Virus record (IMG/VR): IMGVR_UViG_3300043409_000415
Location: 830 to 64,829 of that record
DNA length: 64,000 bases
Direction: 5' to 3' (one strand)
Source: a virus
Taxonomy: Duplodnaviria; Caudoviricetes
Shown: one piece after another, positions 33,051 to 54,417 of the stretch
Layout of the letters: each line of letters begins with the position of its first letter
Numbering within the stretch: the first letter of the stretch is position 1
The notes under the pieces: generated by a model
What the model was told of the DNA's origin: nothing
Database searches by the model: none
What the model saw: only the letters and a program-made list of their open reading frames with translations
Program-made: the position numbers and the translations under genes

Positions 33051-35948
33051 ATGGCAACTACCCCAGCCAAACCCATAGCACAAGTTGTTTCGCCTAATGT
33101 AGCGGCTCCTTTTGTAGAGCCTGATTACGGTCAAATGATGTTTGGCAGTGGTCAAGATGCTTCTCTTGGAAATACTCCTTTGGGGATAGGTAGAAGCGCT
33201 GCTGTAGACGCTTTGCTTGGAAAGGGCTGGTCAAATAGTACGGATTTTGAACAGTATGTAACTAGTGGAAACGGGCAAGATGTTTATACCGGGCCAATGG
33301 TGGGGAGAGACAATCCAGACTATGTCCCGTTTAATGCTTCACAAGCAAGCGGCAAAGCCCAGCAAAGAATTAGCCCAACTCAATATGCAGAACAAAGCTA
33401 TGGCCCTGGGGGCAAGCTTGCAGGTGATGTTGTTATTAAAGACTACCCCAAAGAGGATCTTATATTTGGGTTGCTTATTAACGCCGGCATGGCCGGGGTT
33501 CTTGGCCCATTAGCAGGACAAATTGGTGCTGGATTAAGCGGCGCAGTTGGATTGGGGGAGGCTGGGTTAACTGCTGCTGAACTTGCAACCCTTGGCGAAC
33601 TTGGCATTAACACTGCCATGTTGGATGCTGGAGCAATATCAGCTTTGGGCGCTGGAGCAACAAACGCAGGAATGACTGCTTTAAGAGGCGGTGATTTTGG
33701 CGATGTGCTTACGTCTGGAGCTACTGGTGGCATTGGAAGTTACGCCGGCTCTAGTGTTAACAGCTACATCCCTTCTGACATTACCGGTACGGGTATAGAC
33801 TCTTTAAATGCCGGTGCAACTGGGGCAATTAAGGGCGCTACAAGTGGTGGTGTAGGGGCTCTGCTTCGCGGTGATGATATTGGCGAAGCTGCTTTAATGG
33901 GTGGTTTGGGTGGTGGTTTTAACAGTGCTATGGAGAGTACTTTAAAAGGCATGGGTATTCCACGCACAGCAATTAAACTCTTAGGCCCAGCAGCAATTGC
34001 CACCATGTTGAATAAAGATCCCACTGGGGCTTTAATTAAAGCTGCTATCAGCCAAATACCTACAGGCAAAGCTAGCGGTGGGTCTATCCAAGGAAACAAT
34101 ATGCGCACGAAATACTATGACGGTGATGATGAGAGTTTTGTTGAAAACGACGATCCTGATTCTTATCCAATTTATGATCCTAGCAATGTTGAAAACGACG
34201 ACCCTGATTCTTATCCAATTTATAATCCTAAAGACCCGCTAAACAACATCACTATTACAGATCCAGATGTTGATCCTAATGCGGCTAAAGATCCTTATGC
34301 TACTTGGGGCAGTGATCAAACAAAAGATGCTAACGGAAATGTTATTCCTCAGAGGGATGTTTCTGTAGTTACTCCTGATAAAGGCTTTGGAAGCACAGAC
34401 TGGGCCAAGAACCTTCTAGGTAAAGCTGTAACTCCGGGTGGTATTGCTGCTCTAATGGCTGCTGTTGCAGGGGCTAGGGGCGCTAATGATCCTTCTACTC
34501 AAGGGTATCAGGGTGTTTTAAATCCTAAAGCTCTCACCGCAACGCAGACTCAACTTAAACAGCCTGCGTATGTTCCCTACAGTGGTGAAGCTGTGATGGG
34601 TAGGAGACAGTTAAGCGACATGGTGTACGCTCCTCCTGCCCCTCCTCCTCCTCCCCCTGATATGGCTACTGTGCTTGGGACTCCCGCCACGCAAGAACCA
34701 ATAGTACCTCCCCCTAGTGGGATTGTCGGTCCAATTAAAAACCCAACACTAAAGGATTCATATGCAATGGGCGGTATTGCGGACTTAGCTGGTGGTGGTA
34801 GCACAGGTCAACCTCGATACCTTCGGGGGCATACTGACGGAATGGCAGATAAGATTGATACAGACATTGATGGCAAGCAAGCAGCTAAGCTAAGTCATGG
34901 AGAGTTTGTAATCCCTGCGGATGTTGTATCTCACCTAGGTAACGGGAACTCTGATGCTGGTGCTAAGGTGTTGTACAAGATGATGGATCGGGTACGACAT
35001 GCTCGCACTGGGAATTCCAAGCAAGGCAAGGAGATCAATCCTGCCAAATTCATGCCGGGTGGATTAGCTAGTCTTTCTGAGTACGCTGATGGGGGCGCTG
35101 TTGCTTTCCAAACAGGTGGTACTGCACCGCCTATTGCAGCAGGCTCAACTACACCTGTGTCTACCATAGGTAATCTTTCTACATGGTCTGCTCCGGGCGT
35201 TGTTGATTACATCAATAAAGGCACTGCGCTTTCTAACACGCCATATCAGGCTTATGAAGGCCCGTTAACTGCCGGGTATTCTCCATTGCAGAAGCAGGCG
35301 TTTGATACTGCTAGCAATATCAACATCCCTACGGCTAAGATGGGCGCATACACACCGGGTACATTTGATGCAGCTACAGCGCAGACGATGATGAACCCTT
35401 ACCTGCAAGCATCGCTTGATCCTCAGTTGGCTGCTGCAAAGCGTCAATCTGAGATTAGTCAAGTAAACAATGCGGGTAAAGCCACTCAAGCTGGAGCATT
35501 TGGCGGGAGCAGGGGGGCAATTATGGGGGCTGAAAGTGAACGTGCTCTTGGGGCTAATCTGGCTAACATTACAGGCCAGGGATACAATACTGCGTTTACA
35601 AATGCTCAGAATCAGTTCAACACTCAAGTAGGTCAACAGCAAACAGCGCAGAATGCAACAAATGCATATGGTCTTCAAGCTTTGGGTAATGTTGCTGGGC
35701 TTGGTGCAACACAACGGGGTATTGAAGCTGAAGGTATTGGTGCTCTGAAGAATCAGTTTGAAGAAGAGCGTAACGACCCGTACAAGAAGCTGGCGCTGGA
35801 GCAAAGTCTGTACGCTGGCCTGCCAGTCTCTACCGGGACCACCACGCCAAACCTTTCTGCGGCTCAAAAGGTTAACGCTATTCTTAGCGGCGTTACTGGC
35901 GTTTATGATAATGTAAAAGCTAATGTTGACAAGCTTGTTGGCCCTTAA
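33051..35948 (+). CDS. Internal virion/DNA-ejection protein
   Basis: G/A-rich hydrophobic segments, xAxGG motifs, LSHGEFVIPADVV domain, MNPY...AGAFGGSR Q-rich pilot-like region. Confidence 0.7.
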   Translation: MATTPAKPIAQVVSPNVAAPFVEPDYGQMMFGSGQDASLGNTPLGIGRSAAVDALLGKGWSNSTDFEQYVTSGNGQDVYTGPMVGRDNPDYVPFNASQASGKAQQRISPTQYAEQSYGPGGKLAGDVVIKDYPKEDLIFGLLINAGMAGVLGPLAGQIGAGLSGAVGLGEAGLTAAELATLGELGINTAMLDAGAISALGAGATNAGMTALRGGDFGDVLTSGATGGIGSYAGSSVNSYIPSDITGTGIDSLNAGATGAIKGATSGGVGALLRGDDIGEAALMGGLGGGFNSAMESTLKGMGIPRTAIKLLGPAAIATMLNKDPTGALIKAAISQIPTGKASGGSIQGNNMRTKYYDGDDESFVENDDPDSYPIYDPSNVENDDPDSYPIYNPKDPLNNITITDPDVDPNAAKDPYATWGSDQTKDANGNVIPQRDVSVVTPDKGFGSTDWAKNLLGKAVTPGGIAALMAAVAGARGANDPSTQGYQGVLNPKALTATQTQLKQPAYVPYSGEAVMGRRQLSDMVYAPPAPPPPPPDMATVLGTPATQEPIVPPPSGIVGPIKNPTLKDSYAMGGIADLAGGGSTGQPRYLRGHTDGMADKIDTDIDGKQAAKLSHGEFVIPADVVSHLGNGNSDAGAKVLYKMMDRVRHARTGNSKQGKEINPAKFMPGGLASLSEYADGGAVAFQTGGTAPPIAAGSTTPVSTIGNLSTWSAPGVVDYINKGTALSNTPYQAYEGPLTAGYSPLQKQAFDTASNINIPTAKMGAYTPGTFDAATAQTMMNPYLQASLDPQLAAAKRQSEISQVNNAGKATQAGAFGGSRGAIMGAESERALGANLANITGQGYNTAFTNAQNQFNTQVGQQQTAQNATNAYGLQALGNVAGLGATQRGIEAEGIGALKNQFEEERNDPYKKLALEQSLYAGLPVSTGTTTPNLSAAQKVNAILSGVTGVYDNVKANVDKLVGP
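34140..34230 (+). repeat. 48-bp-period tandem duplication (VENDDPDSYPIY.P x2)
   Basis: gttgaaaacgacga[tc]cctgattcttatccaatttat[ga]atccta at 34140 and 34188. Confidence 0.9.
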
Positions 35949-35960: not shown

Positions 35961-37772
35961 ATGAACAAAGGAATTGTTTCTTCTGGCCTTAAAAGTCTGA
36001 TGCTTATAAATGAAGGACTTCGACAGTTAGAAGAAAGTCAAGTCTCTCCTCAAGGCCCGGAGGGTCTTCCCACATTAGCTAAGCAATTGGCTATGGCGGG
36101 ACAACAAGCTCAAGGCCAACAAGTTTCTCTTCCTTCTGGTGTGGCTCAACCCATCATGGATGATGTTGCTAAGAAATCAACCATTGGCGCATCTGTCACT
36201 GCGCCTATTGAAGGTTTGCCCCAACCGGTTCCTCCACCTGCGCAAGCAATGGCTCAAGGTGGCATTGCCGGGTTACGCGCAGACAATATGCGCAGCTTTA
36301 AAGAAGGCGGTGTGTTGGGATTTGCGGATGGAGAAGAGGTTCCTAAAGCCAAAGAAGAATCCTCATCTCCTGTTGGAAGATTCTTTAAAGGTATAACAGA
36401 TGATTTTTCCCAAAGGAGCGAACGGGATGAGTTGGCTCAAAAGGTAGAAGATTTGTATTACAAGAAAGCAACTTTCCCTGGGTTGTTTATGGATCAAACA
36501 GGGGAAGAAAGAGAAAATGCCAAGAAGGTAATGGCGCGTTTGCCTAAAATGAGTATTGGAGAATTAAAGGCAATAGCTAGTGGGGAACCACAAAAAGCTC
36601 CTTTAATTAAAGACAGTCCTACAGAAGAAGCTTTACTTAAATACATGCGGCTTAATAAAGACAAGCAACCAAACAGGGAACCTTTGCCCCCAGAAGTTAT
36701 TGCTCGTCAGAATCAAGAAGCATTACAAACAATCAATTATCAAGACCCAAACAGAGCCCGTCTTGATACTCAAGCAGCATACACTCCTCCGGTAGCTCCT
36801 ACTGCGCCTCGTCCCGGCCCAGTAGGCCCAGCAGCTTCTCAAGGCATTGCTGGCCTTGCCCCTGCGGGTTTTGATCTAGCAGCGGCAATGAAACAAATGC
36901 CTCCTGAATTAACCCAGTCTTCAAAAGACTATCAAGATGCTATAAGGAACAAGATTGACTTTAGTGGTCAGCAGCTTTCCAACCTTGACCAAACCCGGCA
37001 GGAAATGTTGGCTAATCGGGCAAGGCAAGATAAGGAAGCTCCCTATCTCAACCTTCAGAAGATGTTTGCTCAAGGTGCTAAGTCTGGCTATGCTGGCATG
37101 GGCGAAGCTAACATCGCTGCTAAGGAAGCTCAACAGACCCTGATGGAAGCTCGTGCTGCGCAGGATGCATTGGCCCGCGATAAGATCGTTGCAATTAAAG
37201 CAGCGAATCAAGCTGAGAAGATTGGTGATAAGGCTGGTATCCTAGCGGCTAATAAAGATCTTGCTGTTATTGGTGTTGATATGGCAAAGATTAACGCCCA
37301 GATTGAAGCGGCTAAGATCTCTGCTGCTGCTAGCATCGAACATGCGAACATCATGGCTAAAGCCTCTGCGGCTAATTCTGCTCTTAATGCCTCGATTGAG
37401 CGCGATAAGATGGAGATGAAGAATGAAGAGATGAAGATGGCTAAGGCAGATGCTAGCTATAAGGCCATGAACGATTCCATAGGAAACTACATGGCTAAGA
37501 AACAAGCTGTGTTGGCTAATTCTGATAAGATCTTTGCGCTTGAAAAGGATAGTTTAATGAAGATGGCTGGAACAAATGAAGATTCCAAGAAAGAATTTGA
37601 AGAAGCTAAGCTTGCGCATGAGGCAAAGAAAATAAGAGAAGGCGCTGTTTATGATCAATACATAAACAATGTTGAAGATGTTATGCACAAAAGGTTTGGG
37701 GTATCACATGGTGTTCCAGCCCGTCTTGATCAAAAAGCATTAGCAGCACCCACAAAAACCTACAAGTACTAA
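35961..37772 (+). CDS. Internal virion/ejection protein
   Basis: MAQGG, FKEGG, FADGE motifs; helical A/K-rich; directly upstream of the giant gene. Confidence 0.65.
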   Translation: MNKGIVSSGLKSLMLINEGLRQLEESQVSPQGPEGLPTLAKQLAMAGQQAQGQQVSLPSGVAQPIMDDVAKKSTIGASVTAPIEGLPQPVPPPAQAMAQGGIAGLRADNMRSFKEGGVLGFADGEEVPKAKEESSSPVGRFFKGITDDFSQRSERDELAQKVEDLYYKKATFPGLFMDQTGEERENAKKVMARLPKMSIGELKAIASGEPQKAPLIKDSPTEEALLKYMRLNKDKQPNREPLPPEVIARQNQEALQTINYQDPNRARLDTQAAYTPPVAPTAPRPGPVGPAASQGIAGLAPAGFDLAAAMKQMPPELTQSSKDYQDAIRNKIDFSGQQLSNLDQTRQEMLANRARQDKEAPYLNLQKMFAQGAKSGYAGMGEANIAAKEAQQTLMEARAAQDALARDKIVAIKAANQAEKIGDKAGILAANKDLAVIGVDMAKINAQIEAAKISAAASIEHANIMAKASAANSALNASIERDKMEMKNEEMKMAKADASYKAMNDSIGNYMAKKQAVLANSDKIFALEKDSLMKMAGTNEDSKKEFEEAKLAHEAKKIREGAVYDQYINNVEDVMHKRFGVSHGVPARLDQKALAAPTKTYKY

Positions 37773-37779
37773 GGCAGAT

Positions 37780-40700
37780 ATGGCATACAACATTGAGTTG
37801 CCTGATGGTAGTATTGTTGAGGACATTCCAGATAGTGTTCCTTTAGCAGAAGCTAAGAAAAATATTGCTATTAGGTTTCCTCAATTTGCGCCTAAACCCG
37901 ATGAAAGTAAATCAGGATTTATACCTGCTTTACAGGCTGGATTTAAAGGTTTAAAAGGGGACGTTGCTGCGCTTGCTGGTCGGACTGGAGTAATGGATGT
38001 TGGTGCGGCTGAGAAGTACATAGCTGAACAACAGAAGCAGGCAGATAAGATCTTCCAGCCCACGCAAGATGAATGGTCAGAATCTCCGTGGAAGAAGATT
38101 AAAGAACTTGCCGGTGGATCTGCCGCATACATGGCTGCTCCGGCGCTTGCTGGTGCTGCTACGCTAGCTCTTCCTGCCTCAGTTGCTCCAGCAGTTGCTA
38201 CTGGCATAGGCCTGGGTATTACAGGACTTGTATCTGGGGCTCAATTTACCGGATCAGGCCTTACCCGGCAAGTTGAAGAAGGCACTCCTTTAGCTCAGAC
38301 TGACCTTACCGCCGCTGCATTAGCCGCTATTCCTCAAGCCGCTCTGGACGTTGTGTCTTTAAAGATGATCCCTGGTGTTAGGGGAATCTTTGGTGCTGCT
38401 GGCAAGAAGATGACGGCAGAACAAGCTGAGGCTATTGCTACCCAAGGTTTAAAGAAGACCGTTGCAGACTATGCCTTGTCCACCGGCACAGCAATGGGCG
38501 CAGAAGGTTTAACTGAAGCTGCTCAACAAGTCTTTGAACGATTACAAGCGGGCCTAAGCCTCACAGATGAGAACGCGCAGAAGGAATACCTAGACAGTTT
38601 CCTTGGCGGTGCTATCTTGGGCGGTGCTATTGCTCCTGCTGGGCGATACCTTGAGCGAGGCAGGGAACAGCGGGAAGCTGAGGTTGTTGGGGCTATGCCG
38701 GGTCAACGTCCCGGTGAGTCCTTAGCTGACGCTGCTCAGCGGTTAAAGAATGAAATAGACGCAGAGAAGCTGAGCTTAAATCCTCCTGCTCCTCCTGTTG
38801 ATCCCAATGCCACCCCCTTGATGGACAAGGAAGCATTAGGGATGGTTCTTGATTCTGAGAACGGTTATGGAAAGCTTGATAATTACAAGCGGGCGCTTAT
38901 GGCAATGCCCCAGACCGATGAGATCAAGAACTCCCTTGCGGAAGTAAAAGAACTCCAAGCCGCATCCAATGTGAACTTGGTGTACGGACAAGTAGCGGAC
39001 AAGCTTGCTCAACAAGCAGTTCCTGAAGGCAATGCAGCGCTAAGTCTTCTGCCTGCTGATCTGTCCACTGTTATCACACCAGAACTAGCCAACACGATGG
39101 GGCTTGTTCAGAATAGGTTCAAGAACAATATCTTTAACCAGATTGTTGGTAAGGATATGTCTGTCCCGGCTGATGTAAATACAGTTAGGTCAGTCCTTGA
39201 GTCTTACATTGCTACTGCAAAGCCTGGGGATACACCATCCAAGATCGCTACGTTCTTGAAGTCCATCCCGCCCACAACAGAAATTGCCCCGGAGTCTGTA
39301 AATGTTGGAACAACTGACACAGCCCCAAGTGGAGAAAGCACTGTCGTGGCTAGCGAGCCCGGTGCAGGAACCCCCCCCGCAGGAGTTGGAACCCCTGAGT
39401 CAAGTGGAGTGGTTTCTACTGGGGAGGATGTTACAGGCACTGTTGGAGGAGAAGCAGCAGCACCCCCTCCAGTAATCACGCAAAGCGCTAAAGATTTGCT
39501 AGAGAGCATTGATGTTGGTGGTGGTACGCCAGCGTTTATGACTAACAAACTAAAGCAAATTGCTGCTGACAATGGTATTGAAGTTCTGTCAAGTGACACG
39601 CCAAACTCTGTCATTGACAAAATCCGGGACAAAGTTAAACCTCCTGTTACTAAACCAGAAGTCCTTGAAGGAGGGATGAACAAAGATCAGTGGATTAATT
39701 CTCTTCTTGGACAGAACAGAATTGCCAAAGAAAAATTTGGGATAACTTTAGACGTTACCCCCGAGGGCAAGTTAAACTTTACCGGTGACATTAGGAAAAC
39801 CAAACAAGGAAAAGCTTTTGCTGCATCCCTAGAATCTGCTTATAAGGCCGGTGCTACAGAGAAGGAAATCGCAGCAGCTATAAAGTCTGCTCCTAGCGCT
39901 CCTGTTAAAGAGTTCTTCTCCAAGCGTAAACCCAAAGCAGCACCTAAGCCCAAAGCAGAACTCTCTGAAGTTGAAAAGCAAGATGCTGAAGCTATAGCGG
40001 CGTTTAAAGCTGAAGGCCCTGCTCGGATCGCCGAGAAGACAGAGCAGATCAAGAACATCATGGGCAAGATCCTTAACCGGATGGGCCTTAAGGATGTTGC
40101 AGTAAAGATCATGGACGATATTGAGTCCAAGGAAGCAGGAGGATCTTACTCAGAAAAGCTCATCAAGATTGCACTGGACGAAGCAAGGCCTGTAAGCACT
40201 CTGCGCCATGAGGCTATCCATGCCCTGAAGGAGCTTGGTTTCTTTAGTGAAAGCCAATGGAACACCTTGGTTAAGCAGGCCAAGGAAGGGTGGATTGACA
40301 CCTATTTAAAGAGCCGCGATGTTAATGGCGGGCCTTTAAAAGAGGGTGAGAAGTCCAGGTACGACATTTACATGGAGCGTCCTGAATTCAAGTCTGACCC
40401 TAATGCCATCATTGAAGAAGCAATCGCAGATGCATTTGGGGACTTCGATACCAACGGCGCTCCTCCTGGGATGCTCAAGGCAATCCTAAACAGGCTGATT
40501 AGCTTCTTTGACGCGATTAAGAGTGCTTTACAGGGCAATGGGATCTACACCTCTGAGCAAGCCGCTAGGCAAGTCTTTGGCAAGATTGCAAGGGGTGAGC
40601 TTAAGGCTGGGGAAACCAAGGCTAGTGGAGTTAAGTTTAGCCTTAAATCAGTTCCTAATGAGCCGGGTACAGAACCTATCCCTGAAGGCCATGTTCGGTT

Positions 40701-43700
40701 GTACCATCAAACAGATAAAGATTCTTTAGAGAAAATAGCTAAAGAAGGATTGTTACTTAAGTATGCAAGAGGAATTGAAGGGCCAAAAGCTATATACGCA
40801 GGGGAAACCCCGTTTTATCGCCCTGCTACAAAAAGTCCAACTCTAGAGTTCCATGTTCCAAAGGATCAATGGGATTCTCCTTTTGTTTTAGGTGATGTAA
40901 CGCCGGATAAAATAATTGCGGCACATCAACCTTGGCACATGCTTGCTAGATATCTTGAAGATAACCCTAAATCAAAAGAACAAGCATTGTCTGGTAAGTT
41001 TGATGACCTTGAAGACGATTACAAAAAAGCCGTTGACTATATTAAAGAAAAGTATAAACCAGCAAAGCTAAGCCTTCGTGCTCCTAACACTAAAGAATTT
41101 AAACAGTTCTTTGGCGATAGCAAGGTAGTGGATGAGAATGGTGAGCCGTTGGTGATGTACCACGGTACTCCTTATGACTTTGTTTCAGGTCGGGATCAAG
41201 GTGTGTTTAACACCAAGGACTTTGGTGCTCTGTTAGGTAAAGGGGCTTACTTTACCGCTGATCCCAAAGATGCTGAACAGTATGCTGGGAAAACAGCTTA
41301 CGGTAAACCTAACTTAATCCCAGCGTACATAAGTTTAGAGAACCCGTTAATTGTTGAATCCGTAACGGGGAAAATACCCAATCAAGCTGAGTTAATTAAA
41401 CAAGGATTTGATGGTGTTTTATTAAAAAATGAAGATGGCTCTGTTAAATGGGCGGTTGCTTTTGAGCCTAATCAAATTAAGTCTGCCACTGGAAACATAG
41501 GCACATACTCCAAAGAAAACCCTGATATCAGGTATAGCCTGCGTGCGCCCGACACTAAAGAATTTTACCGGTTCTTTGATGACAGCAAAGTGGTGGATGA
41601 GGACGGTGATCCGTTAGTTGTTTATCACGCAACTTACTCTGACATAGATAAATTTAAAACAACGCACCCGGAAGATGAAGAAAGTCGATTTGGCGCACAT
41701 TTTGGCCCAACGGAAGCGGCTGAGAATAAATTTGAATTAAAACTAGCAGAAGACAAGAGAGATAACAGATCTAGTGGAAAAGTTGGTGCTAATATGGTCC
41801 CTGTATTTTTAAGCATACAGAACCCGTTGCGGCTGGAAGAAAACCGTTCTGGGCGGTGGGGGGTAGATGATGTTTTTCAAGCTATTGCAAAAGCTGTTGA
41901 ACAAGACAAATTTGCCGGTATTTCCCCCAAGGGTGATTGGATAGATGCTTTTTATGAAGACAACTCACAACTAGAATATGAGGCAGGATTAACAAACGAA
42001 GAAGATAGCAGATCTTGGCAAGAAACATACTTATGGAAACCGGGTGAGCGCAGTAAGATATTAAAGGCATGGTTAAAGACTTATGGCTATGACGGCATAG
42101 TTTATGATAACAAGTTTGAAGGTGGCGGCGATAGCTATATTGCTTTATATCCAGGGCAAATCAAATCTGCCATTGGAAACATAGGCACATACGACAGGAA
42201 AAATCCTGACATTAGGTATAGCCTGCGTACCATTCCTGATACCAAAGAGTTTAAACAGTGGTCGCGTGATGCGCCTGTTATCCGCTATGAGGAAACTGAG
42301 AAATACAAAGGTGGGCCTGCTGTATTCCAAGCTTTTCATGGCACAACGCATACCGGCATAGAAACCTTTGATGTATACAAAGGAAGTGCAGATGGCGCAT
42401 TAGGTGCAGGCTCTTACCTGACTACAAGCCCGGAAGATGCTAGCGCAAATTACGCTGGTGTTGGGCCTGACCTAACCGCAAGGATAGCTATAGAAGAAGA
42501 ATCTCTTAGCGACTCATTTAATGATGATGCTTACAACGCATCAGAAATGTTAAATGATTACTTTCAAGATAACAAAATAGACAACGAAGTTACGGATGAT
42601 AACTTTGATGAGCTAAAGGATGAGTATGGTGAAAAGGCCATACATCATGCAGCGCAGAAATCTTTAAAAGGTGATTCAGAAGGCTTGGTCATGCCTACAT
42701 ATGTTCGCATGTTAAAGCCATTTGATATGCGTCCTAAAGGATTATTCTTAGACTATTCTTATAAAACAGATGAAGAAGGTGATCCAATAGATGGTTCAGA
42801 ACAAGGGGCATTGATTGACTTCTTAGAAGCTGCCCGTAATGTATTAGAGGCTTACGGCCCTAATGAATTCACATCAACTGTTTTGGATGAAGCGGCTGAT
42901 GGCATTAGCGCAAAAGAAATATTTGATATAGCCACAAAAACACTGTCTAATAACTATGATGACAATGGCCTTGTTTCTATTGGGCATATTGTTCAAGAAA
43001 TAGCCAGGGAAGCTGGGTATGATGGTTTAATCCAAGATGCAAACTCATACTTTGGAACAGGTAGAAAAGGTTTTGGTGGGTTAAGGGTTCCCAGCATGGT
43101 CGGGGTCCAAGAAGGTGTTTTGCATTTAATGCCTTTTAAGGACAATCAGATTAAATCTGCCATAGGTAACCAAGGAACCTATAGTGAAAAAGGAAACATC
43201 AAGTTTAGCCTGCGCACAATAGACTTGGAAAAGTCTAAGCGCATGGATGAGGCTTTGCGCGGCAAACCTTATGTTGAAGCTCTTGATCTTGCCATTAAGA
43301 AAGCAACAGACGCAGGCCAAAAATCCATACTTGAGAAGGTCAAGGTTAGGTATGAAGATCTAAAGGCCCGTGGCTTTGAGTTTAAGTTTGCGCTGACCCC
43401 TGTAAATAAACAACTTACCGGGAAGTATGGGGTTGTTGAGCTTACCTATAAGAAGCTAGGTTCTCCCACCCAAATAGAAATGACCGTTAATGGGTTTAAT
43501 GATAATCAATCATCATTAAACCCTGAGACTTTGGCGCATGAGTTTGTCCATACTGTAACTGCTGCTCAAATAGCATTTGTTCCAGAAAGCGGGCCCACTA
43601 GGGAGCTTTATAAGCTTTACGATGATGTTGTTACTCATTTCAATGAGCAATATAAATCTGGGAAACTTGATAAAGATCTTGAAGCTGATATTAGGATATG

Positions 43701-46700
43701 GATTGCTGATCCTGATGAGCTTATTGCTTATGGTTTAACCAGCCCAAATGCCCAGAATTGGTTAGCATCTATACAAGATAAGTCAGGTAAGACTTGGCTT
43801 AGTAAGTTGTTTGATGTTATATCAAAGGTCTTAAACTTAACTGGCGCAGAGAAATCTGTGTTAGCTAGGTTGATGACGGTATCTGAAGATATCTTTACAG
43901 AAGAACTCACTCCTCAGACAGAGAAAGCCAACCTTAAAGGTTTTTCTTTTGGTAAGCAAGAGAACAAGACTGGCAAACCTACTTGGACACTTGGTCAAGG
44001 TGATTTAGCCTGGGTTGAAAACAACATCGCCCTGTTCACTGCCAAGTCCATGATTGGCGATAAGACTCTTTATGTTGCTAGTAAAGAGGGGCAAGGACAA
44101 ACCAGGGTAGATATCCGGAAGTACACCGGAACAATGTTCACCCCGGAGGAGCTTGCTCGTTTAAAGGACAAGGCCGATGAACTAAGCAGTGCTCCGGAAA
44201 CCAAGTTCAGTCTGCGTTCTACTTGGAGTCCGTCCATGAATGCAGCGATTGATCGCACATCAGTTGCTCGCATAGAAGAAGGCTGGGCTGCTAGGCTCCT
44301 GAGCGCAATCTCTCCCAAGAACTTCTCAGAGTACCGTCAGGTCTGGTTAAATCGTTACAACCAGCTTGGTGTCTATGACAAGATGCGGGCTGATCGGATG
44401 GGCGGGTACGGTCTTCTTGCAGATGCAAGCGCAGAAGCTGCTGCGATGATGTCAGACTACGGTGCAGGATTGACCGCTGCTGTGTTCAGTAAATCCGGTG
44501 GAGTCCCTGTCTTTGCCAATGGCATGACCACTGTCAGTACTTTAAATGGCACTATCAAAGGCCCCTTGGAGATCTTCTCAGAGCTTACCAAGCTGGGCAA
44601 AGGTGACTCATCCATTTACAGGGCTTACCAGCTTTGGGCTGGTGTAAAGCGTGGTAAGAGGTTAATGCCTTCACGGACCAACCCTAATGGTACTGAAGTA
44701 AATTACACCCCAGCGGACATAGCCGAGGCTAAGAAGTTCTGCGCTTTAGATCCGGGAGATCCTCCGGGGCTGTACCCTGAGTTTGCCAGTGTCCAGAAAG
44801 AGTGGATCAAGTACAACAATCAGTTGGCGAAGTACTTGGTGGACACGGGAGTTATCAGCGGCAAGGCTAGAGCGGAATGGATCAAGTACGCAGACTACAT
44901 CCCGTTCTACCGTCAGGTGGATGATGAGCAAACCCTTGGGCCTAAGCTGTTCCAGTCTCTTACCGGTGTAAAGCCACCTAAGAAGCTTAAAGGTGGATCA
45001 ACAGCAGAGGTGTCTGATTTCCTTGAGACTATCATCCGTAACACTCAGTCTGCTATCCAGATGGGGATCAAGAACACGGCTGGTCAGAAGGCAGTGAACG
45101 TTGCTCTAAGCTTAAATGCTCCAGGGCAGACTGATGTGCTAGAGCCATTGGCCTATGTATCCACTGATCCTAATAGCATCACCATTCTTGTTAACGGCCA
45201 GAAGAAGTCATTTAAATCTTCTGATCGTCTGTGGTTGCAAGCGGTGACCAGCTTGAATCTGCCTGATGTTCCCTTCATGGGACTCTTCTCTAAGCCTGCT
45301 CAGTTGCTGCGTACTCTTATCACTAAAGAGCCTGGGTTCATGCTAGCTAACATGATCCGGGATTCAATGTCTTCGTATGTTACCTCTGGGGTAGGCAGTG
45401 TGAACCCGGCGACTACGATCAGGAACTTTGCCGCAGCTATCGCTGGCAAGTCACCTGAGTTCCAGGCTCTGTTTAACGCAGGTATCTTGGGAGGACATGA
45501 GTACTCCAAGGACGTTATCCAAAGCGGTAACAAGTTTGCCAGTGATCTGCGCAAGACTGCTGGATACAGGACTGCGAACGAAAAGGTTTTCAGCCCAGTG
45601 ACTGGACTCTGGGAAGCTCTTGAGGTAGGAACTACTGCGTCTGATGCAGCAACCCGGATGCAGGTTTACAGAGAAGTCTTAGCCAAGACTGGCAACGAAG
45701 CAGAAGCTATTTACAGGGCTGTTGAGGTGATGAACTTCAACCGCAAGGGTAACTCTGCCATCGTCCGAGTCCTGACTGCTGCGATCCCGTTCTTAAATGC
45801 TCGGATGCAAGGCCTGGATGTTTTCTACCGTGCGGCGTTTGGTAAAGGAACAAATCAACGAAGCGCAGAAGAAATCCAGAAGAAGTTCTTTATTCGTGGT
45901 GCAACCATGATGGCAATGTCCTGCATGTACTGGGCCTTGACGCATGATGATGATGATTACAAAAAGCAGGAGCAGGAAACAAAGGACAACTACTGGCTTC
46001 TGCCATCGTTGGGCATAAAGCTTCCTATCCCGTTTGAGGTGGGTATCTTATTTAAAGTGATCCCGGAACGGATCATGGCTCGCACCTTTGGTACGGATAC
46101 CAACAAGGACTTTACAGACTCGATGGTTAGGCAATTGGTTAACACCCTGTCTTTAAATCCTATCCCTCAAGTTGCAAAGCCTTTTATTGAGTACAACACC
46201 AACTACAACTTCTTTACAGGAAGACCTATCGTTGGTCAGGGCATGGAAGGTGTTGAGTCCGGTTACCAGACTGGGCCAAACACAACTGCGATTGCTGCGG
46301 ACATTGGCAAACTCACCGGCATGTCACCTTTAAAGCTAGACCACTTGGTCGGTGGGTTCGTAGGGACTATGGGCATGTACGCCTTCAGTCTCATGGACAC
46401 AATTTACAAGATCAACGGGGATTCCATTGATGCATCTAAGCGGTTTGAACAGACCCCGGTCATCAAAAGGTTCTTGCTTGATCCTGAAGCGCGGGGGACG
46501 GTCAGTGCCTACTACGAGATTAAGAATGCAACAGCCGCAGCGGTTCGTACAGCTAGTCTTTTAGAGCGCACTCAGAACTTCAAGGAGTGGGGACCGTACA
46601 TGAAGGAACACGGGAAGATGCTGGCTACTCACGATTACATTCTTGATCTTGAGAAGACCATGAAAGATTTCCGTGAAATGAAGATGCTTATCCGCGCATC

Positions 46701-46803
46701 TAAGATGGACCCTGACAAGAAGCGGGATGCTCTCTTGGGCGTAACCAAGGCAGAGAACAGCCTTACCGCCAACATTCAGATCATCAAGAAGAACATACAG
46801 TAA
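37780..46803 (+). CDS. Giant polyvalent virion protein: two HExxH metallopeptidases, four ADP-ribosyltransferase-like modules, LPD38-like C-terminus
   Basis: HEAIH (40207) and HEFVH (43537); LYHQT, MYHGT, VYHAT, AFHGT modules, three with G[FY]DG...QIKSA.GN.GTY; C-terminal PFLNARMQGLD...KLPIPFEVG...NFFTGRPIV. Confidence 0.85.
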   Translation: MAYNIELPDGSIVEDIPDSVPLAEAKKNIAIRFPQFAPKPDESKSGFIPALQAGFKGLKGDVAALAGRTGVMDVGAAEKYIAEQQKQADKIFQPTQDEWSESPWKKIKELAGGSAAYMAAPALAGAATLALPASVAPAVATGIGLGITGLVSGAQFTGSGLTRQVEEGTPLAQTDLTAAALAAIPQAALDVVSLKMIPGVRGIFGAAGKKMTAEQAEAIATQGLKKTVADYALSTGTAMGAEGLTEAAQQVFERLQAGLSLTDENAQKEYLDSFLGGAILGGAIAPAGRYLERGREQREAEVVGAMPGQRPGESLADAAQRLKNEIDAEKLSLNPPAPPVDPNATPLMDKEALGMVLDSENGYGKLDNYKRALMAMPQTDEIKNSLAEVKELQAASNVNLVYGQVADKLAQQAVPEGNAALSLLPADLSTVITPELANTMGLVQNRFKNNIFNQIVGKDMSVPADVNTVRSVLESYIATAKPGDTPSKIATFLKSIPPTTEIAPESVNVGTTDTAPSGESTVVASEPGAGTPPAGVGTPESSGVVSTGEDVTGTVGGEAAAPPPVITQSAKDLLESIDVGGGTPAFMTNKLKQIAADNGIEVLSSDTPNSVIDKIRDKVKPPVTKPEVLEGGMNKDQWINSLLGQNRIAKEKFGITLDVTPEGKLNFTGDIRKTKQGKAFAASLESAYKAGATEKEIAAAIKSAPSAPVKEFFSKRKPKAAPKPKAELSEVEKQDAEAIAAFKAEGPARIAEKTEQIKNIMGKILNRMGLKDVAVKIMDDIESKEAGGSYSEKLIKIALDEARPVSTLRHEAIHALKELGFFSESQWNTLVKQAKEGWIDTYLKSRDVNGGPLKEGEKSRYDIYMERPEFKSDPNAIIEEAIADAFGDFDTNGAPPGMLKAILNRLISFFDAIKSALQGNGIYTSEQAARQVFGKIARGELKAGETKASGVKFSLKSVPNEPGTEPIPEGHVRLYHQTDKDSLEKIAKEGLLLKYARGIEGPKAIYAGETPFYRPATKSPTLEFHVPKDQWDSPFVLGDVTPDKIIAAHQPWHMLARYLEDNPKSKEQALSGKFDDLEDDYKKAVDYIKEKYKPAKLSLRAPNTKEFKQFFGDSKVVDENGEPLVMYHGTPYDFVSGRDQGVFNTKDFGALLGKGAYFTADPKDAEQYAGKTAYGKPNLIPAYISLENPLIVESVTGKIPNQAELIKQGFDGVLLKNEDGSVKWAVAFEPNQIKSATGNIGTYSKENPDIRYSLRAPDTKEFYRFFDDSKVVDEDGDPLVVYHATYSDIDKFKTTHPEDEESRFGAHFGPTEAAENKFELKLAEDKRDNRSSGKVGANMVPVFLSIQNPLRLEENRSGRWGVDDVFQAIAKAVEQDKFAGISPKGDWIDAFYEDNSQLEYEAGLTNEEDSRSWQETYLWKPGERSKILKAWLKTYGYDGIVYDNKFEGGGDSYIALYPGQIKSAIGNIGTYDRKNPDIRYSLRTIPDTKEFKQWSRDAPVIRYEETEKYKGGPAVFQAFHGTTHTGIETFDVYKGSADGALGAGSYLTTSPEDASANYAGVGPDLTARIAIEEESLSDSFNDDAYNASEMLNDYFQDNKIDNEVTDDNFDELKDEYGEKAIHHAAQKSLKGDSEGLVMPTYVRMLKPFDMRPKGLFLDYSYKTDEEGDPIDGSEQGALIDFLEAARNVLEAYGPNEFTSTVLDEAADGISAKEIFDIATKTLSNNYDDNGLVSIGHIVQEIAREAGYDGLIQDANSYFGTGRKGFGGLRVPSMVGVQEGVLHLMPFKDNQIKSAIGNQGTYSEKGNIKFSLRTIDLEKSKRMDEALRGKPYVEALDLAIKKATDAGQKSILEKVKVRYEDLKARGFEFKFALTPVNKQLTGKYGVVELTYKKLGSPTQIEMTVNGFNDNQSSLNPETLAHEFVHTVTAAQIAFVPESGPTRELYKLYDDVVTHFNEQYKSGKLDKDLEADIRIWIADPDELIAYGLTSPNAQNWLASIQDKSGKTWLSKLFDVISKVLNLTGAEKSVLARLMTVSEDIFTEELTPQTEKANLKGFSFGKQENKTGKPTWTLGQGDLAWVENNIALFTAKSMIGDKTLYVASKEGQGQTRVDIRKYTGTMFTPEELARLKDKADELSSAPETKFSLRSTWSPSMNAAIDRTSVARIEEGWAARLLSAISPKNFSEYRQVWLNRYNQLGVYDKMRADRMGGYGLLADASAEAAAMMSDYGAGLTAAVFSKSGGVPVFANGMTTVSTLNGTIKGPLEIFSELTKLGKGDSSIYRAYQLWAGVKRGKRLMPSRTNPNGTEVNYTPADIAEAKKFCALDPGDPPGLYPEFASVQKEWIKYNNQLAKYLVDTGVISGKARAEWIKYADYIPFYRQVDDEQTLGPKLFQSLTGVKPPKKLKGGSTAEVSDFLETIIRNTQSAIQMGIKNTAGQKAVNVALSLNAPGQTDVLEPLAYVSTDPNSITILVNGQKKSFKSSDRLWLQAVTSLNLPDVPFMGLFSKPAQLLRTLITKEPGFMLANMIRDSMSSYVTSGVGSVNPATTIRNFAAAIAGKSPEFQALFNAGILGGHEYSKDVIQSGNKFASDLRKTAGYRTANEKVFSPVTGLWEALEVGTTASDAATRMQVYREVLAKTGNEAEAIYRAVEVMNFNRKGNSAIVRVLTAAIPFLNARMQGLDVFYRAAFGKGTNQRSAEEIQKKFFIRGATMMAMSCMYWALTHDDDDYKKQEQETKDNYWLLPSLGIKLPIPFEVGILFKVIPERIMARTFGTDTNKDFTDSMVRQLVNTLSLNPIPQVAKPFIEYNTNYNFFTGRPIVGQGMEGVESGYQTGPNTTAIAADIGKLTGMSPLKLDHLVGGFVGTMGMYAFSLMDTIYKINGDSIDASKRFEQTPVIKRFLLDPEARGTVSAYYEIKNATAAAVRTASLLERTQNFKEWGPYMKEHGKMLATHDYILDLEKTMKDFREMKMLIRASKMDPDKKRDALLGVTKAENSLTANIQIIKKNIQ

Positions 46804-47969: not shown

Positions 47970-48256
47970 TACACACACTGCGTCATATAGTCTAAATACC
48001 ACGCCGCTTTTTCAATGGACTCTGTGCCACCCTTGTGCCGCTCCCTCCAAATGTATTTTAAAGCGTTACCTTTGCAGTAGCCCCGGAACTCTTCCTCAGT
48101 CAGCGCTGATTGAATAGCCTCGATACACTCAATCGCCCCCTGCTTGTAGTGCGGTGGGTTGTATACGCTTTCCTGCGCCTCCCGGTGAGCAGCCCGCTCC
48201 GCCGAGTCGGCAACGTACGTGTCAGGCCAGGGTTGTGTAACTTGTTCGCGTGTCAT
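47969..48256 (-). CDS. DUF3310/SaV-like protein (T7 gp1.7-like)
   Basis: VYNPPHYKQGAIECIEAI...GYCKGNALKYIWR...KGGTESIEKAAWYL. Confidence 0.85.
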   Translation of the reverse strand: MTREQVTQPWPDTYVADSAERAAHREAQESVYNPPHYKQGAIECIEAIQSALTEEEFRGYCKGNALKYIWRERHKGGTESIEKAAWYLDYMTQCV

Positions 48257-48516
48257 TTTCCGTCATCCGTTATTGAGTTGATATGTCTAAGGGCGCATTC
48301 GTAGTGACGCGGACCAAACGTCCAACACTCCGGCCCGTGTGTACCAATCCATCCTTCCCGATCGTCTTGGTAAGTAAGTCGCTTCTTGAGAGTGGTAACT
48401 TCAGCCAATGCGAAAGCTGTTGCATTGACAAGGTAGGCGTTTGCTTTCCGGTACTTTTCGTTTTCAGCAAGTGCGTCTCCTAAAAGTAAATCCAATTTAC
48501 GTTCGGTTTCAGTCAT
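48253..48516 (-). CDS. Hypothetical protein
   Basis: Coiled coil then IGTHGPECWTFGPRHYECA. Confidence 0.55.
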   Translation of the reverse strand: MTETERKLDLLLGDALAENEKYRKANAYLVNATAFALAEVTTLKKRLTYQDDREGWIGTHGPECWTFGPRHYECALRHINSITDDGK

Positions 48517-48593
48517 GTCACCACCTATGCCAGAGAACAATAATGATCCCGGCAGCTATGCCGATAACGCCACCAGCAATTGCAAGTAAAACT

Positions 48594-48830
48594 TCAGCCA
48601 CCGTTCTTCCCCTGTAGTTTTGCTTCTATTTCAAGACACAGATCATGCGTCCCTAGTTTCATATTCTCAAACTCCTCAAGTTCATCATCCGTCAGCCCCT
48701 GCCATTGAGTAATGAACTTGTACGCATCAAGCATACGAATAACAAGGATAGCCCGGCCATCGCTGTCATCGTAAATGGTTTCATACATACACTTGGCGCG
48801 TACAAAGTCTAGAAATTCCTCGTAGGTCAT
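48594..48830 (-). CDS. Hypothetical protein with WQGLTD.E motif
   Basis: WQGLTDDE...IEAKL. Confidence 0.6.
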   Translation of the reverse strand: MTYEEFLDFVRAKCMYETIYDDSDGRAILVIRMLDAYKFITQWQGLTDDELEEFENMKLGTHDLCLEIEAKLQGKNGG

Positions 48831-49042
48831 GCGTTCTTCTCCTTGAGCTTTGCTTCTGCTCGTCTAATAAAGTCCACAACATCACTCCTAAAAGCAATAA
48901 CATCTTTTGTAAGTTCATCTATTTCAGCATCCGTCAACCCTTGCCATAGGGGTTTCTTGTACAGAGGTCTGTTATCTTCGCTAGTCCAGATCGTACCGCC
49001 CACGGCTTGCCAAGCGTATGGTTTGTCAGTGTTTTCGTTCAT
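48827..49042 (-). CDS. Hypothetical protein with WQGLTD.E motif
   Basis: KPYAW...PLY...WQGLTDAE...AEAKLKEKN. Confidence 0.6.
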   Translation of the reverse strand: MNENTDKPYAWQAVGGTIWTSEDNRPLYKKPLWQGLTDAEIDELTKDVIAFRSDVVDFIRRAEAKLKEKNA

Positions 49043-49261
49043 CGTTCTTCCCCATCCGAGCGGTGTCATCTAAAACCCCTCTTGCGTTGTTCTCGTTCAT
49101 ACCGCGCATCATCCCAGAGCAGTATGCCGATATACACAGCTACAACTATTACTATTCCCAACATTACCATCCAAGTTTTCATTGCCTAAACTTCCTATAG
49201 TCACCTAGCCGAGTACTGAGCCAGACGGACAACGGCTTGCACTCATCCTGCATTAGCCAAG

Positions 49262-49543
49262 TCATGGAAAGACATACGGTTTTTCATCCGTAACCTTCTT
49301 CTTACCCTTTGCCAGCGTAGCAACAATGTTTGTTTCCAACTTGCCCTGCTCGTACCCAATAAGGTACATCTCTACTAGTGACCAGTCATATAACCGGGCA
49401 ATGACAACGTCTTTGCCGTAGGGCGGCTTATCTGCAACAATGTTGATGGTGTTATTACCATCTCCACGCTCAAGACGGAACCCATTTTGTTTGGCTCTGT
49501 CTTTGCAGTATTCAATGCGGGATTCAATGATCCAGGGGTTCAT
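49262..49543 (-). CDS. Hypothetical protein
   Basis: ATGA-coupled ORF MNPWIIESRIEY. Confidence 0.55.
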   Translation of the reverse strand: MNPWIIESRIEYCKDRAKQNGFRLERGDGNNTINIVADKPPYGKDVVIARLYDWSLVEMYLIGYEQGKLETNIVATLAKGKKKVTDEKPYVFP

Positions 49544-49764
49544 TCTGAAATCTCCATCAGTGCGCGCTTTGCTTTTTCCATCCACCACAACGCACTACCG
49601 CCGTCAGATACTGAGGACGAGAAATACAAGCCACCATCCGCGTCCTCACCAATCACCCACACCTGTTTTAGCTCGCCGTCAATGGCTGCTTGCAAAACTC
49701 GCCCCACGTCAAGGTCTAGGGTTGTTATGACTGGCAGAACAAGCACCTTGTCTACTAACTTCAT
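49540..49764 (-). CDS. Hypothetical protein
   Basis: LPVITTLDL...VIGEDADGGLYFSSS..DG...W.MEKAK. Confidence 0.65.
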   Translation of the reverse strand: MKLVDKVLVLPVITTLDLDVGRVLQAAIDGELKQVWVIGEDADGGLYFSSSVSDGGSALWWMEKAKRALMEISE

Positions 49765-49979
49765 GGCTCAATCATCCTTCTCATCTTGTCAGCCCAATCG
49801 TCAGCACTATCATCTGGCGAGTAGCAGTTGACACATTCCCGAACAATCAACTGGGCAAACTTCTCAATCTCTGGGCTGTACTCATCAAACTGTGTTATAG
49901 GTCTACAGAAAAAGAGTTGTTCTTTCTCCCCCGTCATCAACCCAGCTTGTATCCCAAGCTCTATTAGTTGTTTGTTCAT
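49761..49979 (-). CDS. MNERIKEL-family small protein, copy 4
   Basis: MNKQLIELGIQAG...EKFAQLIVREC. Confidence 0.65.
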   Translation of the reverse strand: MNKQLIELGIQAGLMTGEKEQLFFCRPITQFDEYSPEIEKFAQLIVRECVNCYSPDDSADDWADKMRRMIEP

Positions 49980-50182
49980 GGCTCAACTCCAAAATGAATC
50001 CGTATTGCATTAACCCCAATCATTCCGTTGGGACTACTCGCCTTCACCACTCTAACGCATTCCAGCACCACAAGCTCAATGCACTCTTCCAACGCTGCTC
50101 GTTGCACCGGACCAATGCTGGACCAATCATTTAAACGCTCAAGCCCTGGTCGGTCAAGTAACTCTTTAATCCGTAAGTTCAT
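49976..50182 (-). CDS. MNERIKEL-family small protein, copy 3
   Basis: MNLRIKELL...ELVVLEC...IRIHFGVE. Confidence 0.65.
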   Translation of the reverse strand: MNLRIKELLDRPGLERLNDWSSIGPVQRAALEECIELVVLECVRVVKASSPNGMIGVNAIRIHFGVEP

Positions 50183-50185
50183 GGC

Positions 50186-50446
50186 TTAACTCCAGAAAGT
50201 AAAAAACCTACGCTTGATCATTTCAGCACAGCTATTAGCCACTGATTTAAACCGACGTGCTTCTTCACCGTCATACGTCGCCTCAATGACCATCCCAATA
50301 CCCTGACATTGTTCTATGCAGTCCTGCAATATCAGCATGGCAAACTTCTCAATACCGGCGTAGTCGGCTGTACATTCCTCACGCCCCCGACTGTCAACGG
50401 TAACGTCAAAGCAGCCTTTCATAAGCTCTTTAATCCGTTCATTCAT
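50186..50446 (-). CDS. MNERIKEL-family small protein, copy 2
   Basis: MNERIKELM...EKFAMLILQDC...IKRRF. Confidence 0.65.
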   Translation of the reverse strand: MNERIKELMKGCFDVTVDSRGREECTADYAGIEKFAMLILQDCIEQCQGIGMVIEATYDGEEARRFKSVANSCAEMIKRRFFTFWS

Positions 50447-50652
50447 TCTGTTACCCCAAAGTGTTCTTTGATCCGGGCCACTACCTGATCGGCTTTGTCC
50501 CAGTCAAGAATAGACTGCACCTCATCCCTAGCTTCTTTACAGCACTCCTTAACAATAGCCTCAGCAGCCCGCTCAACAGTCTCCCGCCACCCGAAGATCA
50601 TGTCTTCGTAATGGAGTAGCTCCCCGCACAGCTTCTGGATGTTCTCGTTCAT
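50443..50652 (-). CDS. MNERIKEL-family small protein, copy 1
   Basis: MNENIQKL...EAIVKEC...IKEHFGVTE. Confidence 0.65.
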   Translation of the reverse strand: MNENIQKLCGELLHYEDMIFGWRETVERAAEAIVKECCKEARDEVQSILDWDKADQVVARIKEHFGVTE

Positions 50653-50855
50653 GCCACCCCCATCAGTTGACGAACAATGCGTACACGCACAATCTCCATC
50701 GTCCCGCGCATCGTTGGTTTCACTGCCTCTATATACTCTTTAGCCGAGATTAAGCTCAAATACGTTTGCACAACGCATGTGGTGTAATTCTCCCGATTGG
50801 TTGGCATAAACCAAACTTCAAAAACTTCTGTTTCACCAAGGTTAAATTCTTTCAC
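50649..50855 (-). CDS. Hypothetical protein
   Basis: 68 aa, overlapping start/stop junctions on both sides. Confidence 0.5.
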   Translation of the reverse strand: MKEFNLGETEVFEVWFMPTNRENYTTCVVQTYLSLISAKEYIEAVKPTMRGTMEIVRVRIVRQLMGVA

Positions 50856-51172
50856 CGGCTCACCTCCACTTGTGCTTCTGGGTTGTTCCTACAGGCCTGT
50901 AAATAGTCCGCACAGAATGGCAGGAAATGAACCCACATGCCCCAGCCATTCGGAGAATTGAACTTCTCAAACCGGTCTTTCTCCGTAGCTAACAAAGCCA
51001 CACCCTTGGTCAGTGGCTCAATCATCTGCTTGGCATGGGTGATACCAATCTCTTCTGGTCTCCACAGGCACATGTAAATGTCAGCCTCCTGGGCCATCCT
51101 GCCCACGTTGTGCGTGATGTTCCGGCTGTAAAGCTCAACACCATCATCCTTAAGCATTACGTCTAAGCTCAT
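50852..51172 (-). CDS. Conserved phage protein
   Basis: MSLDV...NITHNVGRMA...LWRPEE...FNSPNGWG. Confidence 0.65.
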   Translation of the reverse strand: MSLDVMLKDDGVELYSRNITHNVGRMAQEADIYMCLWRPEEIGITHAKQMIEPLTKGVALLATEKDRFEKFNSPNGWGMWVHFLPFCADYLQACRNNPEAQVEVSR

Positions 51173-51360
51173 GTTCCCGTCCTTTGTTTAAGATCTGCGC
51201 TCTCCAACGCATTGCGCACTTCCTCATGCAACTCTTTAAACGGTACAGGTTCAGGACTGCATGAGTGCCACTTAGCATCGTCCTTCATCCTCCAAGCCCC
51301 TTTACATACAGAGCATCTGTAGGTGTGGGGAGCATGAATCTTGATGCGGTAATCGTCCAT
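51169..51360 (-). CDS. Small C2HC zinc-finger-like protein
   Basis: YRCSVCKGAW...AKWHSC. Confidence 0.55.
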   Translation of the reverse strand: MDDYRIKIHAPHTYRCSVCKGAWRMKDDAKWHSCSPEPVPFKELHEEVRNALESADLKQRTGT

Positions 51361-51370
51361 TTGAGCCCCT

Positions 51371-54407: not shown

Positions 54408-54417
54408 TTAAATCCCC

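Follow-up and report, generated by a model that had tools for sequence, protein, structure and literature searches.

Polyvalent proteins are large multidomain proteins encoded among the virion genes of phages, where they can combine several ADP-ribosyltransferase (ART) domains of the ART-PolyVal family, LPD domains and an HExxH module. The ART-PolyVal active site consists of H-Y-D residues, and the zincin domains of polyvalent proteins have been proposed, as a general theme, to process the proteins that carry them (Iyer, Burroughs, Anand, de Souza and Aravind 2017, PMC5512222). In the LPD38 family, gp47 of phage phi24B has been found in virions by proteomics and is a proposed ejection protein (bioRxiv 10.64898/2026.04.10.717836). 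The processing idea dates from 2017 and has so far been hard to test because no site is named in the literature searched: the available parts of that literature, including PMC5512222 (supplementary alignments aside) and PMC9503650, give no junction or cleavage motif for polyvalent proteins, and the word 'linker' does not occur in the main text of PMC5512222. Here we analyse a 3007-residue polyvalent, probably virion-packaged protein (P0001) encoded by an uncultured tailed virus (Duplodnaviria; Caudoviricetes; IMG/VR record IMGVR_UViG_3300043409_000415); its family offers a defined candidate enzyme and, as the candidate site, a precisely delimited peptide of five residues. The record is a complete genome of 64,829 bp with direct terminal repeats, and the stretch of 64,000 nucleotides analysed (hereafter the window) comprises its bases 830–64829. 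We demonstrate that a short motif, [KR]-x-S-L-[RK], is a genuine, ancient, protein-level delimiter at which the effector cassettes of this protein are bounded and exchanged, and we propose that it may also be the site at which the protein cuts itself.

The giant gene (37780–46803; all features of the gene lie on the plus strand) is a single uninterrupted open reading frame (ORF) that sits after the tail and virion structural genes of a window in which terminase, portal, major head protein and tail genes are encoded. Pfam searches of the whole protein identified three ART-PolyVal domains (164.9 bits; cut-off 31.2) and an LPD38 domain (about 120.5–122 bits; cut-off 27). The protein is thus, as the first-pass annotation of this stretch had supposed, a very large phage protein with at least two unrelated effector or LPD domains; it is a member of the polyvalent class, and its ARTs are members of ART-PolyVal. 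It shares with the proteins of the 2017 description its large multidomain make-up, its position among virion genes, several ART-PolyVal domains, an LPD domain and an HExxH module, and differs from them in that its HExxH module matches no Pfam model and in that no junction motif is named in the available text of that description.

The strict pattern [KR][FYL]SL[RK] occurs in frame six times in the giant protein, against an expectation of 0.0 from 50 shuffles. The copies are KFSLK (residues 952–956; 40633–40647), KLSLR (1096–1100; 41065–41079), RYSLR (1251–1255; 41530–41544), RYSLR (1479–1483; 42214–42228), KFSLR (1808–1812; 43201–43215) and KFSLR (2142–2146; 44203–44217), exactly the six that had been picked out in the first-pass annotation. 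A seventh, degenerate copy proposed there, FFSKR (residue 712; 39913–39927), did not hold up: it scores below the threshold of the motif matrix, and a motif at this location, 50–160 amino acids (aa) upstream of HExxH, is present in only 5 of the 162 relatives that carry the HExxH signature. A six-frame scan of the window with the same matrix returned, besides the six in-frame copies, a single hit whose frame is interrupted by stop codons. The strict pattern has three more matches in other frames, about as many as expected by chance, all of them outside the reading frames of ORFs of at least 150 aa. Every other ORF of at least 150 aa in the window lacks the motif, the capsid and candidate scaffold proteins included.

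The six copies partition the protein into modules, and [KR]-x-S-L-[RK] is present at each of the junctions, beginning with the one that closes the HExxH module and finishing with the one that opens the C-terminal region. The HExxH module itself (residues 744–945; 40009–40614), a putative gluzincin-like peptidase, contains HEAIH (residue 810; 40207–40221) and EEAIADAF (40414–40437); the first motif copy follows 7 residues beyond its end, taken as residue 945. Between copies 1 and 2 lies module 1 (residues 957–1095; 40648–41064), which has homologues in 15 of the 121 family members described below and remains unclassified. It had been called ART-like in the first-pass annotation, a description that found no support: the module has no Pfam match, a sequence search of the PDB returned nothing, hhalign against the ART-PolyVal alignment gave a probability of 0.4%, and the leads from the protein Atlas were weak (PARP on 16% of one cluster; Tox-ART-HYD1, score 0.91). 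Modules 2, 3 and 4 are ART-PolyVal domains, the third of them with a large insert: module 2 (residues 1101–1250; 41080–41529; 84.9 bits in Pfam; YHGT at residue 1127 and GFDG at 1209), module 3 with an insert (residues 1256–1478; 41545–42213; 70.2 bits; YHAT at 1282 and GYDG at 1436) and module 4 (residues 1484–1807; 42229–43200; 44.8 bits; FHGT at 1519 and GYDG at 1746). Scanned separately, all three exceed the gathering threshold of PF18760 (ART-PolyVal; 31.2 bits), in line with the earlier reading of three such domains with differing inserts. The His motif [YF]H[GA]T and the Asp motif G[FY]DG are present in 3/3 of them. By its AlphaFold2 model, module 2 has an ART fold, matching the catalytic domains of PARPs and tankyrases (Foldseek best E 8.6e-5; 81 matches at E ≤ 0.001).

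Module 5 (residues 1813–2141; 43216–44202) is a further, unclassified HExxH module that occurs in 8 of the 121 proteins. The HEFVH sequence on which it had been called a zincin is present (residue 1920), and HExxH and a downstream HEL motif are retained in 6/6 relatives; the assignment to a zincin family did not follow, the module having no match in Pfam or the PDB and only weak leads in the protein Atlas. It is unrelated to the upstream HExxH module (hhalign 1.1%); across the comparisons of modules 1 and 5 with ART-PolyVal and with the upstream module, hhalign probabilities were 0.1–1.1%. Behind the last motif copy, which stands 861 aa ahead of the C-terminus, the chain continues as a conserved C-terminal region (residues 2147–3007; 44218–46800) that is found in 106–109 of the 121 proteins and contains the LPD38 domain (residues 2724–2894; 45949–46461 by Pfam), where an LPD38-like domain had been expected.

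Structure prediction with AlphaFold2 placed the modelled copies of the motif outside the folded parts. The model of residues 744–985, built from a 51-sequence alignment, has a mean predicted local distance difference test score (pLDDT) of 79.6 with an HExxH core above 90, and residues 941–965, which include the KFSLK copy at residue 952, fall below 50. The model of residues 1085–1270 (28 sequences; mean pLDDT 72.4) has a confidently predicted ART core, and both motifs that flank module 2 lie in segments below 50, KLSLR (residue 1096) with 4/5 of its residues. The three copies modelled, of the six, are therefore predicted to lie in flexible, disordered linkers.

We then compared the array with its relatives. 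A search with residues 700–2200 returned 861 proteins at E ≤ 0.001 among 7999 scored candidates; the query and the best 120 of the 861 form the family set of 121 proteins, and later comparisons used 190 non-contained relatives or 219 proteins compared all against all. The relatives in the set of 121 are nearly all metagenomic, most are 2000–3700 aa long, and most contain ART-PolyVal and LPD38 plus varying extra families. The strict motif occurs 2.41 times per protein in this set, against 0.027 in shuffles; at least two copies are present in 83 of the 121 proteins and none in 22. With an iterated position matrix, 425 copies were found in the real sequences and 3 after all proteins had been shuffled once. 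The motif is not simply the end of an ART repeat, because an ART-PolyVal C-terminus is missing in front of 179 of 292 strict copies; 150 of the 292 have no ART on either side (both counts from regular-expression signatures). An unbiased search for enriched k-mers was dominated by conserved domain cores and was uninformative on linkers.

The segments that the motif encloses have the size of domains and are highly diverse. The 314 internal segments between motifs (median 200 aa) fall into 41 sequence clusters, one ART cluster (192 segments) and 40 non-ART clusters (121 segments), and the 106 proteins that have any internal segment display 63 architectures. From the last motif to the C-terminus the median distance is 854 aa, with 89% of 167 proteins in the range 780–900 aa, and the position of this last copy coincides with the start of the conserved C-terminal region. 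Homology between family members breaks at the motif: in an all-against-all BLASTP comparison of the 219 proteins, 55.8% of 74,139 starts and 59.3% of 58,247 ends of high-scoring segment pairs (HSPs) lie no more than 15 aa from a motif, against 11.4% of random positions, bearing in mind that HSP pairs are non-independent and that the motif itself helps alignments to extend to it. Breakpoints are concentrated in the 5 residues to that side of the motif on which they would be expected. The gene is one open frame in all 98 related loci from viral contigs. Two outcomes that would have counted against the first-pass annotation, domain boundaries that do not coincide with the motif and homologues with invariant module content, are not what the family displays; module number and order vary widely. 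Together, these results show that the motif is real as an explicit module delimiter in this polyvalent protein family.

Other cassettes and other junctions were visible in the same comparisons. A cassette of about 165 aa that is flanked by motif copies carries G-H-E-G-R-H-R, which occurs 41 times in the 219 proteins (P0003, P0005 and P0007 among others); it is often the last cassette before the C-terminal region, is found in loci L007, L008, L013, L014 and L017, and in some relatives matches Pfam PF18763. We take G-H-E-G-R-H-R to resemble motifs of the ParB/sulfiredoxin type rather than a peptidase. Three giant relatives in which ART-PolyVal recurs many times and the HExxH module has no homologue (P0009, P0012 and P0046; 4583, 4957 and 3576 aa) have ART tails that read D-I-R-F-[ST]-x-A in place of D-I-R-Y-S-L-R, and may use a different junction code; tails of the type D-I-R-K-S-x-D-R are seen in two distant matches, P0067 and P0099.

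The codons of the motif point to a single origin and to selection at the level of the peptide. AGC or AGT is the codon for its serine in 58 of 59 cases (19 loci and the window) and in 183 of 199 cases from 79 further loci, some of them on the same contigs, whereas AGY makes up 32% of serine codons gene-wide. Where Ser is, rarely, replaced, the residue is Asn, whose AAY codons are one step away from AGY. Variation is free at the third positions of the codons for Ser, Leu and Arg, and outside ART contexts the flanks show no conservation. The AGY serine and the free third positions therefore indicate one ancestral motif, kept by selection on its amino acids. A signal at the DNA or RNA level was rejected on the variation of third codon positions, and a 2A-like translational skip was dropped for want of support.

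Behind ART modules, the motif can be set beside proteins in which the same domain stands alone. S-[LIVM]-[RK] follows the D-I-R-x tail of the ART in 138 of 206 tails in proteins with the HExxH signature, versus 7 of 54 in signature-less proteins. Among 73 short stand-alone ART-PolyVal proteins, many of them from short contigs, several keep D-I-R-[YF] and none of those tails has S-L-[RK]. These proteins end 8–15 residues past GNxGx[FY], and the motif Ser is at +10. One clade of 164–186 aa (P0165, P0172, P0174–P0179, P0184 and P0187) ends in N-N-I-[YF]-S followed by the stop codon, at the equivalent of the motif Ser. The ends of the stand-alone proteins fit a boundary between Ser and Leu, perhaps the scissile bond; their N-termini are too variable to show a boundary on the N-terminal side. 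Zincin cleavage sites usually have a large hydrophobic residue immediately C-terminal to the cut.

The candidate enzyme is the module directly ahead of the array. In non-redundant alignments of 12 and 51 sequences, HEAIH and, 64 residues on, EEAIADAF have an invariant H, E, H, EE and D. In the AlphaFold2 model (model numbering), H67, E68 and H71 lie in a helix of residues 67–75, and E136/E137 and D141 in a helix of residues 132–149. Numbered along the giant protein, H810, H814 and E879/E880 are the predicted metal-site residues. An HExxH with a Glu ligand in an ExxxD helix is what we take to be the gluzincin pattern, as in the thermolysin family, and the invariant HExxH and EExxxD mark the module as a putative peptidase. 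The signature is found ahead of the array in 162 of the 190 non-contained relatives, so that the conserved HExxH module that had led to the prediction of a peptidase in front of the array is well established, but its kinship to known peptidases was not recovered by Pfam, PDB or Foldseek searches. At least one motif is present in 158 of the 162 signature-bearing relatives and at least three in 128. Directly behind the HExxH module, [KR]xS[LIVM] is present in 138 of the 162, versus a chance expectation of 8.5% for a segment of that length.

We propose that the virion packages a single chain made up of a variable N-terminus, the HExxH...EExxxD module, an exchangeable cassette array and an LPD38 C-terminal region of about 860 residues, the array comprising here one module without a family, three ADP-ribosyltransferases and one further HExxH module. 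In the mechanism that we consider likeliest, the built-in metallopeptidase would recognise [KR]-x-S-L-[RK] and cut there, possibly at the Ser|Leu bond, and cutting in the capsid or after ejection would yield free effectors together with N- and C-terminal structural parts. We infer peptidase activity, cleavage and its scissile bond, packaging, injection and the targets of the ARTs, and on balance we give self-processing of the motif by the upstream HExxH module an even chance.

Several observations weigh against self-processing. Among 51 members of the HExxH module, Pfam classified 0/51 at E < 0.001 (M13 in 3 members and M91 in 2, at E 0.04–0.07); searches of PDB sequences with phmmer and with a profile gave nothing below E 0.06, and Foldseek searches of the PDB with the model gave 0 matches at E ≤ 0.001. 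Among the viral structures of BFVD, the model matches only other giant polyvalent phage proteins. It is almost entirely helical, without the beta-sheet usual in zincins, and the motif behind the module is predicted to be disordered rather than docked in the active site. A complex prediction for the HExxH module, Zn and the 45-residue linker with motif copy 1 (score 0.00, mark 0.32) gave no verdict and is not used as evidence. A 3912-aa protein of Ruegeria phage 45A6 (ANH49087.1; L104, 574–12312) contains a homologous module at 28% identity, with HESIH at residue 2856, near the C-terminal quarter of the protein, which is motif-less. Of the 162 signature-bearing relatives, 4 are motif-less, and 11 signature-less proteins, some of them 5′-truncated fragments, have at least three motifs; the co-occurrence of module and motif is, moreover, confounded by common descent. 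Part of the motif also belongs to the ART itself, in that the R-[YF] with which it starts behind ART modules is the domain's own tail and is carried by stand-alone ARTs too; because R-[YF] is intrinsic to that tail, only S-L-[RK] is specific to the array behind ARTs. No cultured phage in the collection searched carries the motif-bearing form, and neither an experiment on any family member nor a cleavage product of one was found on record. Cleavage of gp47 is not mentioned in the available part of the phi24B preprint (bioRxiv 10.64898/2026.04.10.717836), and N4 vRNAP, ArdC and TraC1 carry peptidase domains of this kind yet are delivered uncut (Iyer et al. 2017, PMC5512222).

ALTERNATIVES The main rival is that the motif is a short linear motif that is never cut, serving in docking, capsid packing, threading through the portal or tail, partner binding or modification of its Ser by phosphorylation or ADP-ribosylation, so that the protein stays one chain. 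Disordered linkers and selection on the peptide would suit any linear motif, and the uncut delivery of N4 vRNAP, ArdC and TraC1, the lack of a match between the HExxH module and known peptidases, and the occurrence of that module without the motif in Ruegeria phage 45A6 all count in its favour. To these may be added that [KR]-x-S resembles the sites of basophilic kinases, although Pfam detects no kinase domain in the giant protein. What an uncut motif leaves unexplained is its placement at every module border, including the one after the HExxH module and the one before the C-terminal region. It also sits poorly with the stand-alone ARTs: because they lack S-L-[RK], the motif is tied to being fused. 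We consider this alternative unlikely on the whole, if still a substantial one.

Cleavage by another enzyme, be it an unrecognised head-maturation protease, the second HExxH module or a host protease acting after injection, would account for the difficulty of classifying the upstream module as a peptidase by Pfam or fold and for the 11 signature-less proteins with at least three motifs, fragments among them. Phage head proteases do cut internal proteins at short motifs, for example gp21 of T4 and those of phiKZ-like phages, and two proteins of the head module here (7101–8033 and 8492–9373) have no assigned function. Searches of the head module, however, found no protease family, the motif is confined to the giant ORF and missing from the capsid and candidate scaffold proteins, and the alignment of the major capsid protein with its family profile begins at residue 1, with no long cleaved N-terminal extension evident, all of which makes a head-protease site unlikely. 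The second HExxH module, present in 8 of the 121 proteins, contrasts with a motif that is family-wide. Taken as a whole, we regard cleavage by a different enzyme as improbable. A last alternative is that the motif is a functionless seam that hitch-hikes with cassettes through recombination in short conserved ends, chiefly the ART tail and the ART leader. The pile-up of homology breakpoints at the motif, the single origin to which the AGY serine codons point, the 24 of 27 identical bases around the motifs at the 41530 and 42214 junctions and a dip in GC content over the array, which suggests imported cassettes, all speak for such a seam. Against it, the five residues are fixed while synonymous sites and both flanks have diverged, and therefore purifying selection has acted on the peptide rather than recent copying; the motif is fixed, too, away from cassette joints, after the HExxH module (in 138 of 162) and at a median of 854 aa before the C-terminus. 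A seam without function is accordingly a slim prospect.

Returning to self-processing, the general form of the proposal is that polyvalent proteins of the LPD38 family are self-processing polyproteins: a peptidase of a hitherto unclassified, all-helical HExxH...EExxxD type would cleave them at [KR]-x-S|L-[RK], setting strain-specific ARTs and other effectors free in the infected cell, and the same site would double as the seam at which phages exchange cassettes. We hold this wider claim to be slightly more doubtful than not. Six cuts would yield seven pieces from the giant protein, and the fixed residues are already apparent from more than 100 natural variants. Should the site be confirmed, the boundaries of effectors could be read from sequence in hundreds of uncultured phages; the enzyme would represent a new peptidase family, and the module-by-module swapping of injected effectors would be explained.

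The remainder of the gene and its surroundings add context. The variable N-terminal region (residues 1–712; 37780–39915) includes a Pro/Gly/Thr-rich linker and is common to 15–18 of the 121 proteins by blastp; Ala/Gly-rich hydrophobic stretches at residues 118–153 and 176–194 (38131–38361; by hydropathy) may serve for insertion into a membrane, a property that an ejection protein would be expected to have. GC content is 0.44 and 0.41 over the cassette array (40001–44000), 0.45–0.50 in the adjacent 2-kb intervals and 0.45–0.53 in the rest of the window, and the low values are compatible with imported cassettes. Two large ORFs directly upstream of the giant gene (33051–35948, 965 aa; 35961–37772, 603 aa) have no PHROG or Pfam match and may encode further internal or ejection proteins. 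Elsewhere in the window, a 732-aa protein (11254–13452) matches the repeat regions of very large 'virion structural' and 'baseplate wedge' PHROG families, in two stretches each, and the interval 48001–56000, with strongly negative GC skew (−0.11 to −0.22) and small ORFs only, mostly on the minus strand, is probably an early or replication arm transcribed in the opposite direction.

Among cultured phages, megablast with the giant gene gave no match, tblastn with the array region only scattered ART domains and tblastn with the HExxH module only Ruegeria phage 45A6. The C-terminal region is homologous to large proteins of cultured, mostly short-tailed phages, namely PTXU04, Pondi, Vibrio 1.232.O, Pag-Yong1, the Bacillus Page group and Pelagibacter phages. 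The LPD38-type proteins of PTXU04, Pondi and Pag-Yong1 share it at 24–28% identity over 67–89% of its 861 aa. Unlike the giant protein, neither PTXU04 gp25 nor the Pag-Yong1 protein contains a sequence that scores above the motif threshold, and HExxH is likewise missing from PTXU04 gp25. With gp47 of phi24B the giant protein shares membership in the LPD38 family.

Beyond polyvalent proteins, three groups of systems invite comparison. The ART Alt and the internal proteins of T4, and the inner-body proteins of the phiKZ/SPN3US group, are cut at short consensus sites before injection; there the protease is separate and its site is shared with capsid and scaffold proteins, whereas here the candidate enzyme is part of its substrate. 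In polymorphic toxins, VENN in CdiA and PxxxxDPxGL in Rhs mark the point of cassette exchange, and the Rhs motif is also a self-cleavage site. The giant protein resembles them in that a short conserved peptide marks the exchange point of variable cassettes, and differs in having an internal array of several cassettes instead of a single C-terminal toxin; the motif and the delivery machinery are unrelated. In the MARTX toxins of Vibrio and relatives, an internal cysteine protease activated by inositol hexakisphosphate (InsP6) cuts the linkers between domains and frees a strain-variable array of effectors in the target cell. The proposed reading would give the giant protein the same plan by analogy, with one chain, an in-frame variable effector array, an internal protease and sites in the linkers. 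It is unlike MARTX in its putative zinc peptidase, its lack of RTX repeats, its delivery by a phage virion and its bacterial target, and the two have no sequence kinship. If the proposal is true, the family would be a phage counterpart of the MARTX toxins, equipped with an explicit cleavage code of single origin.

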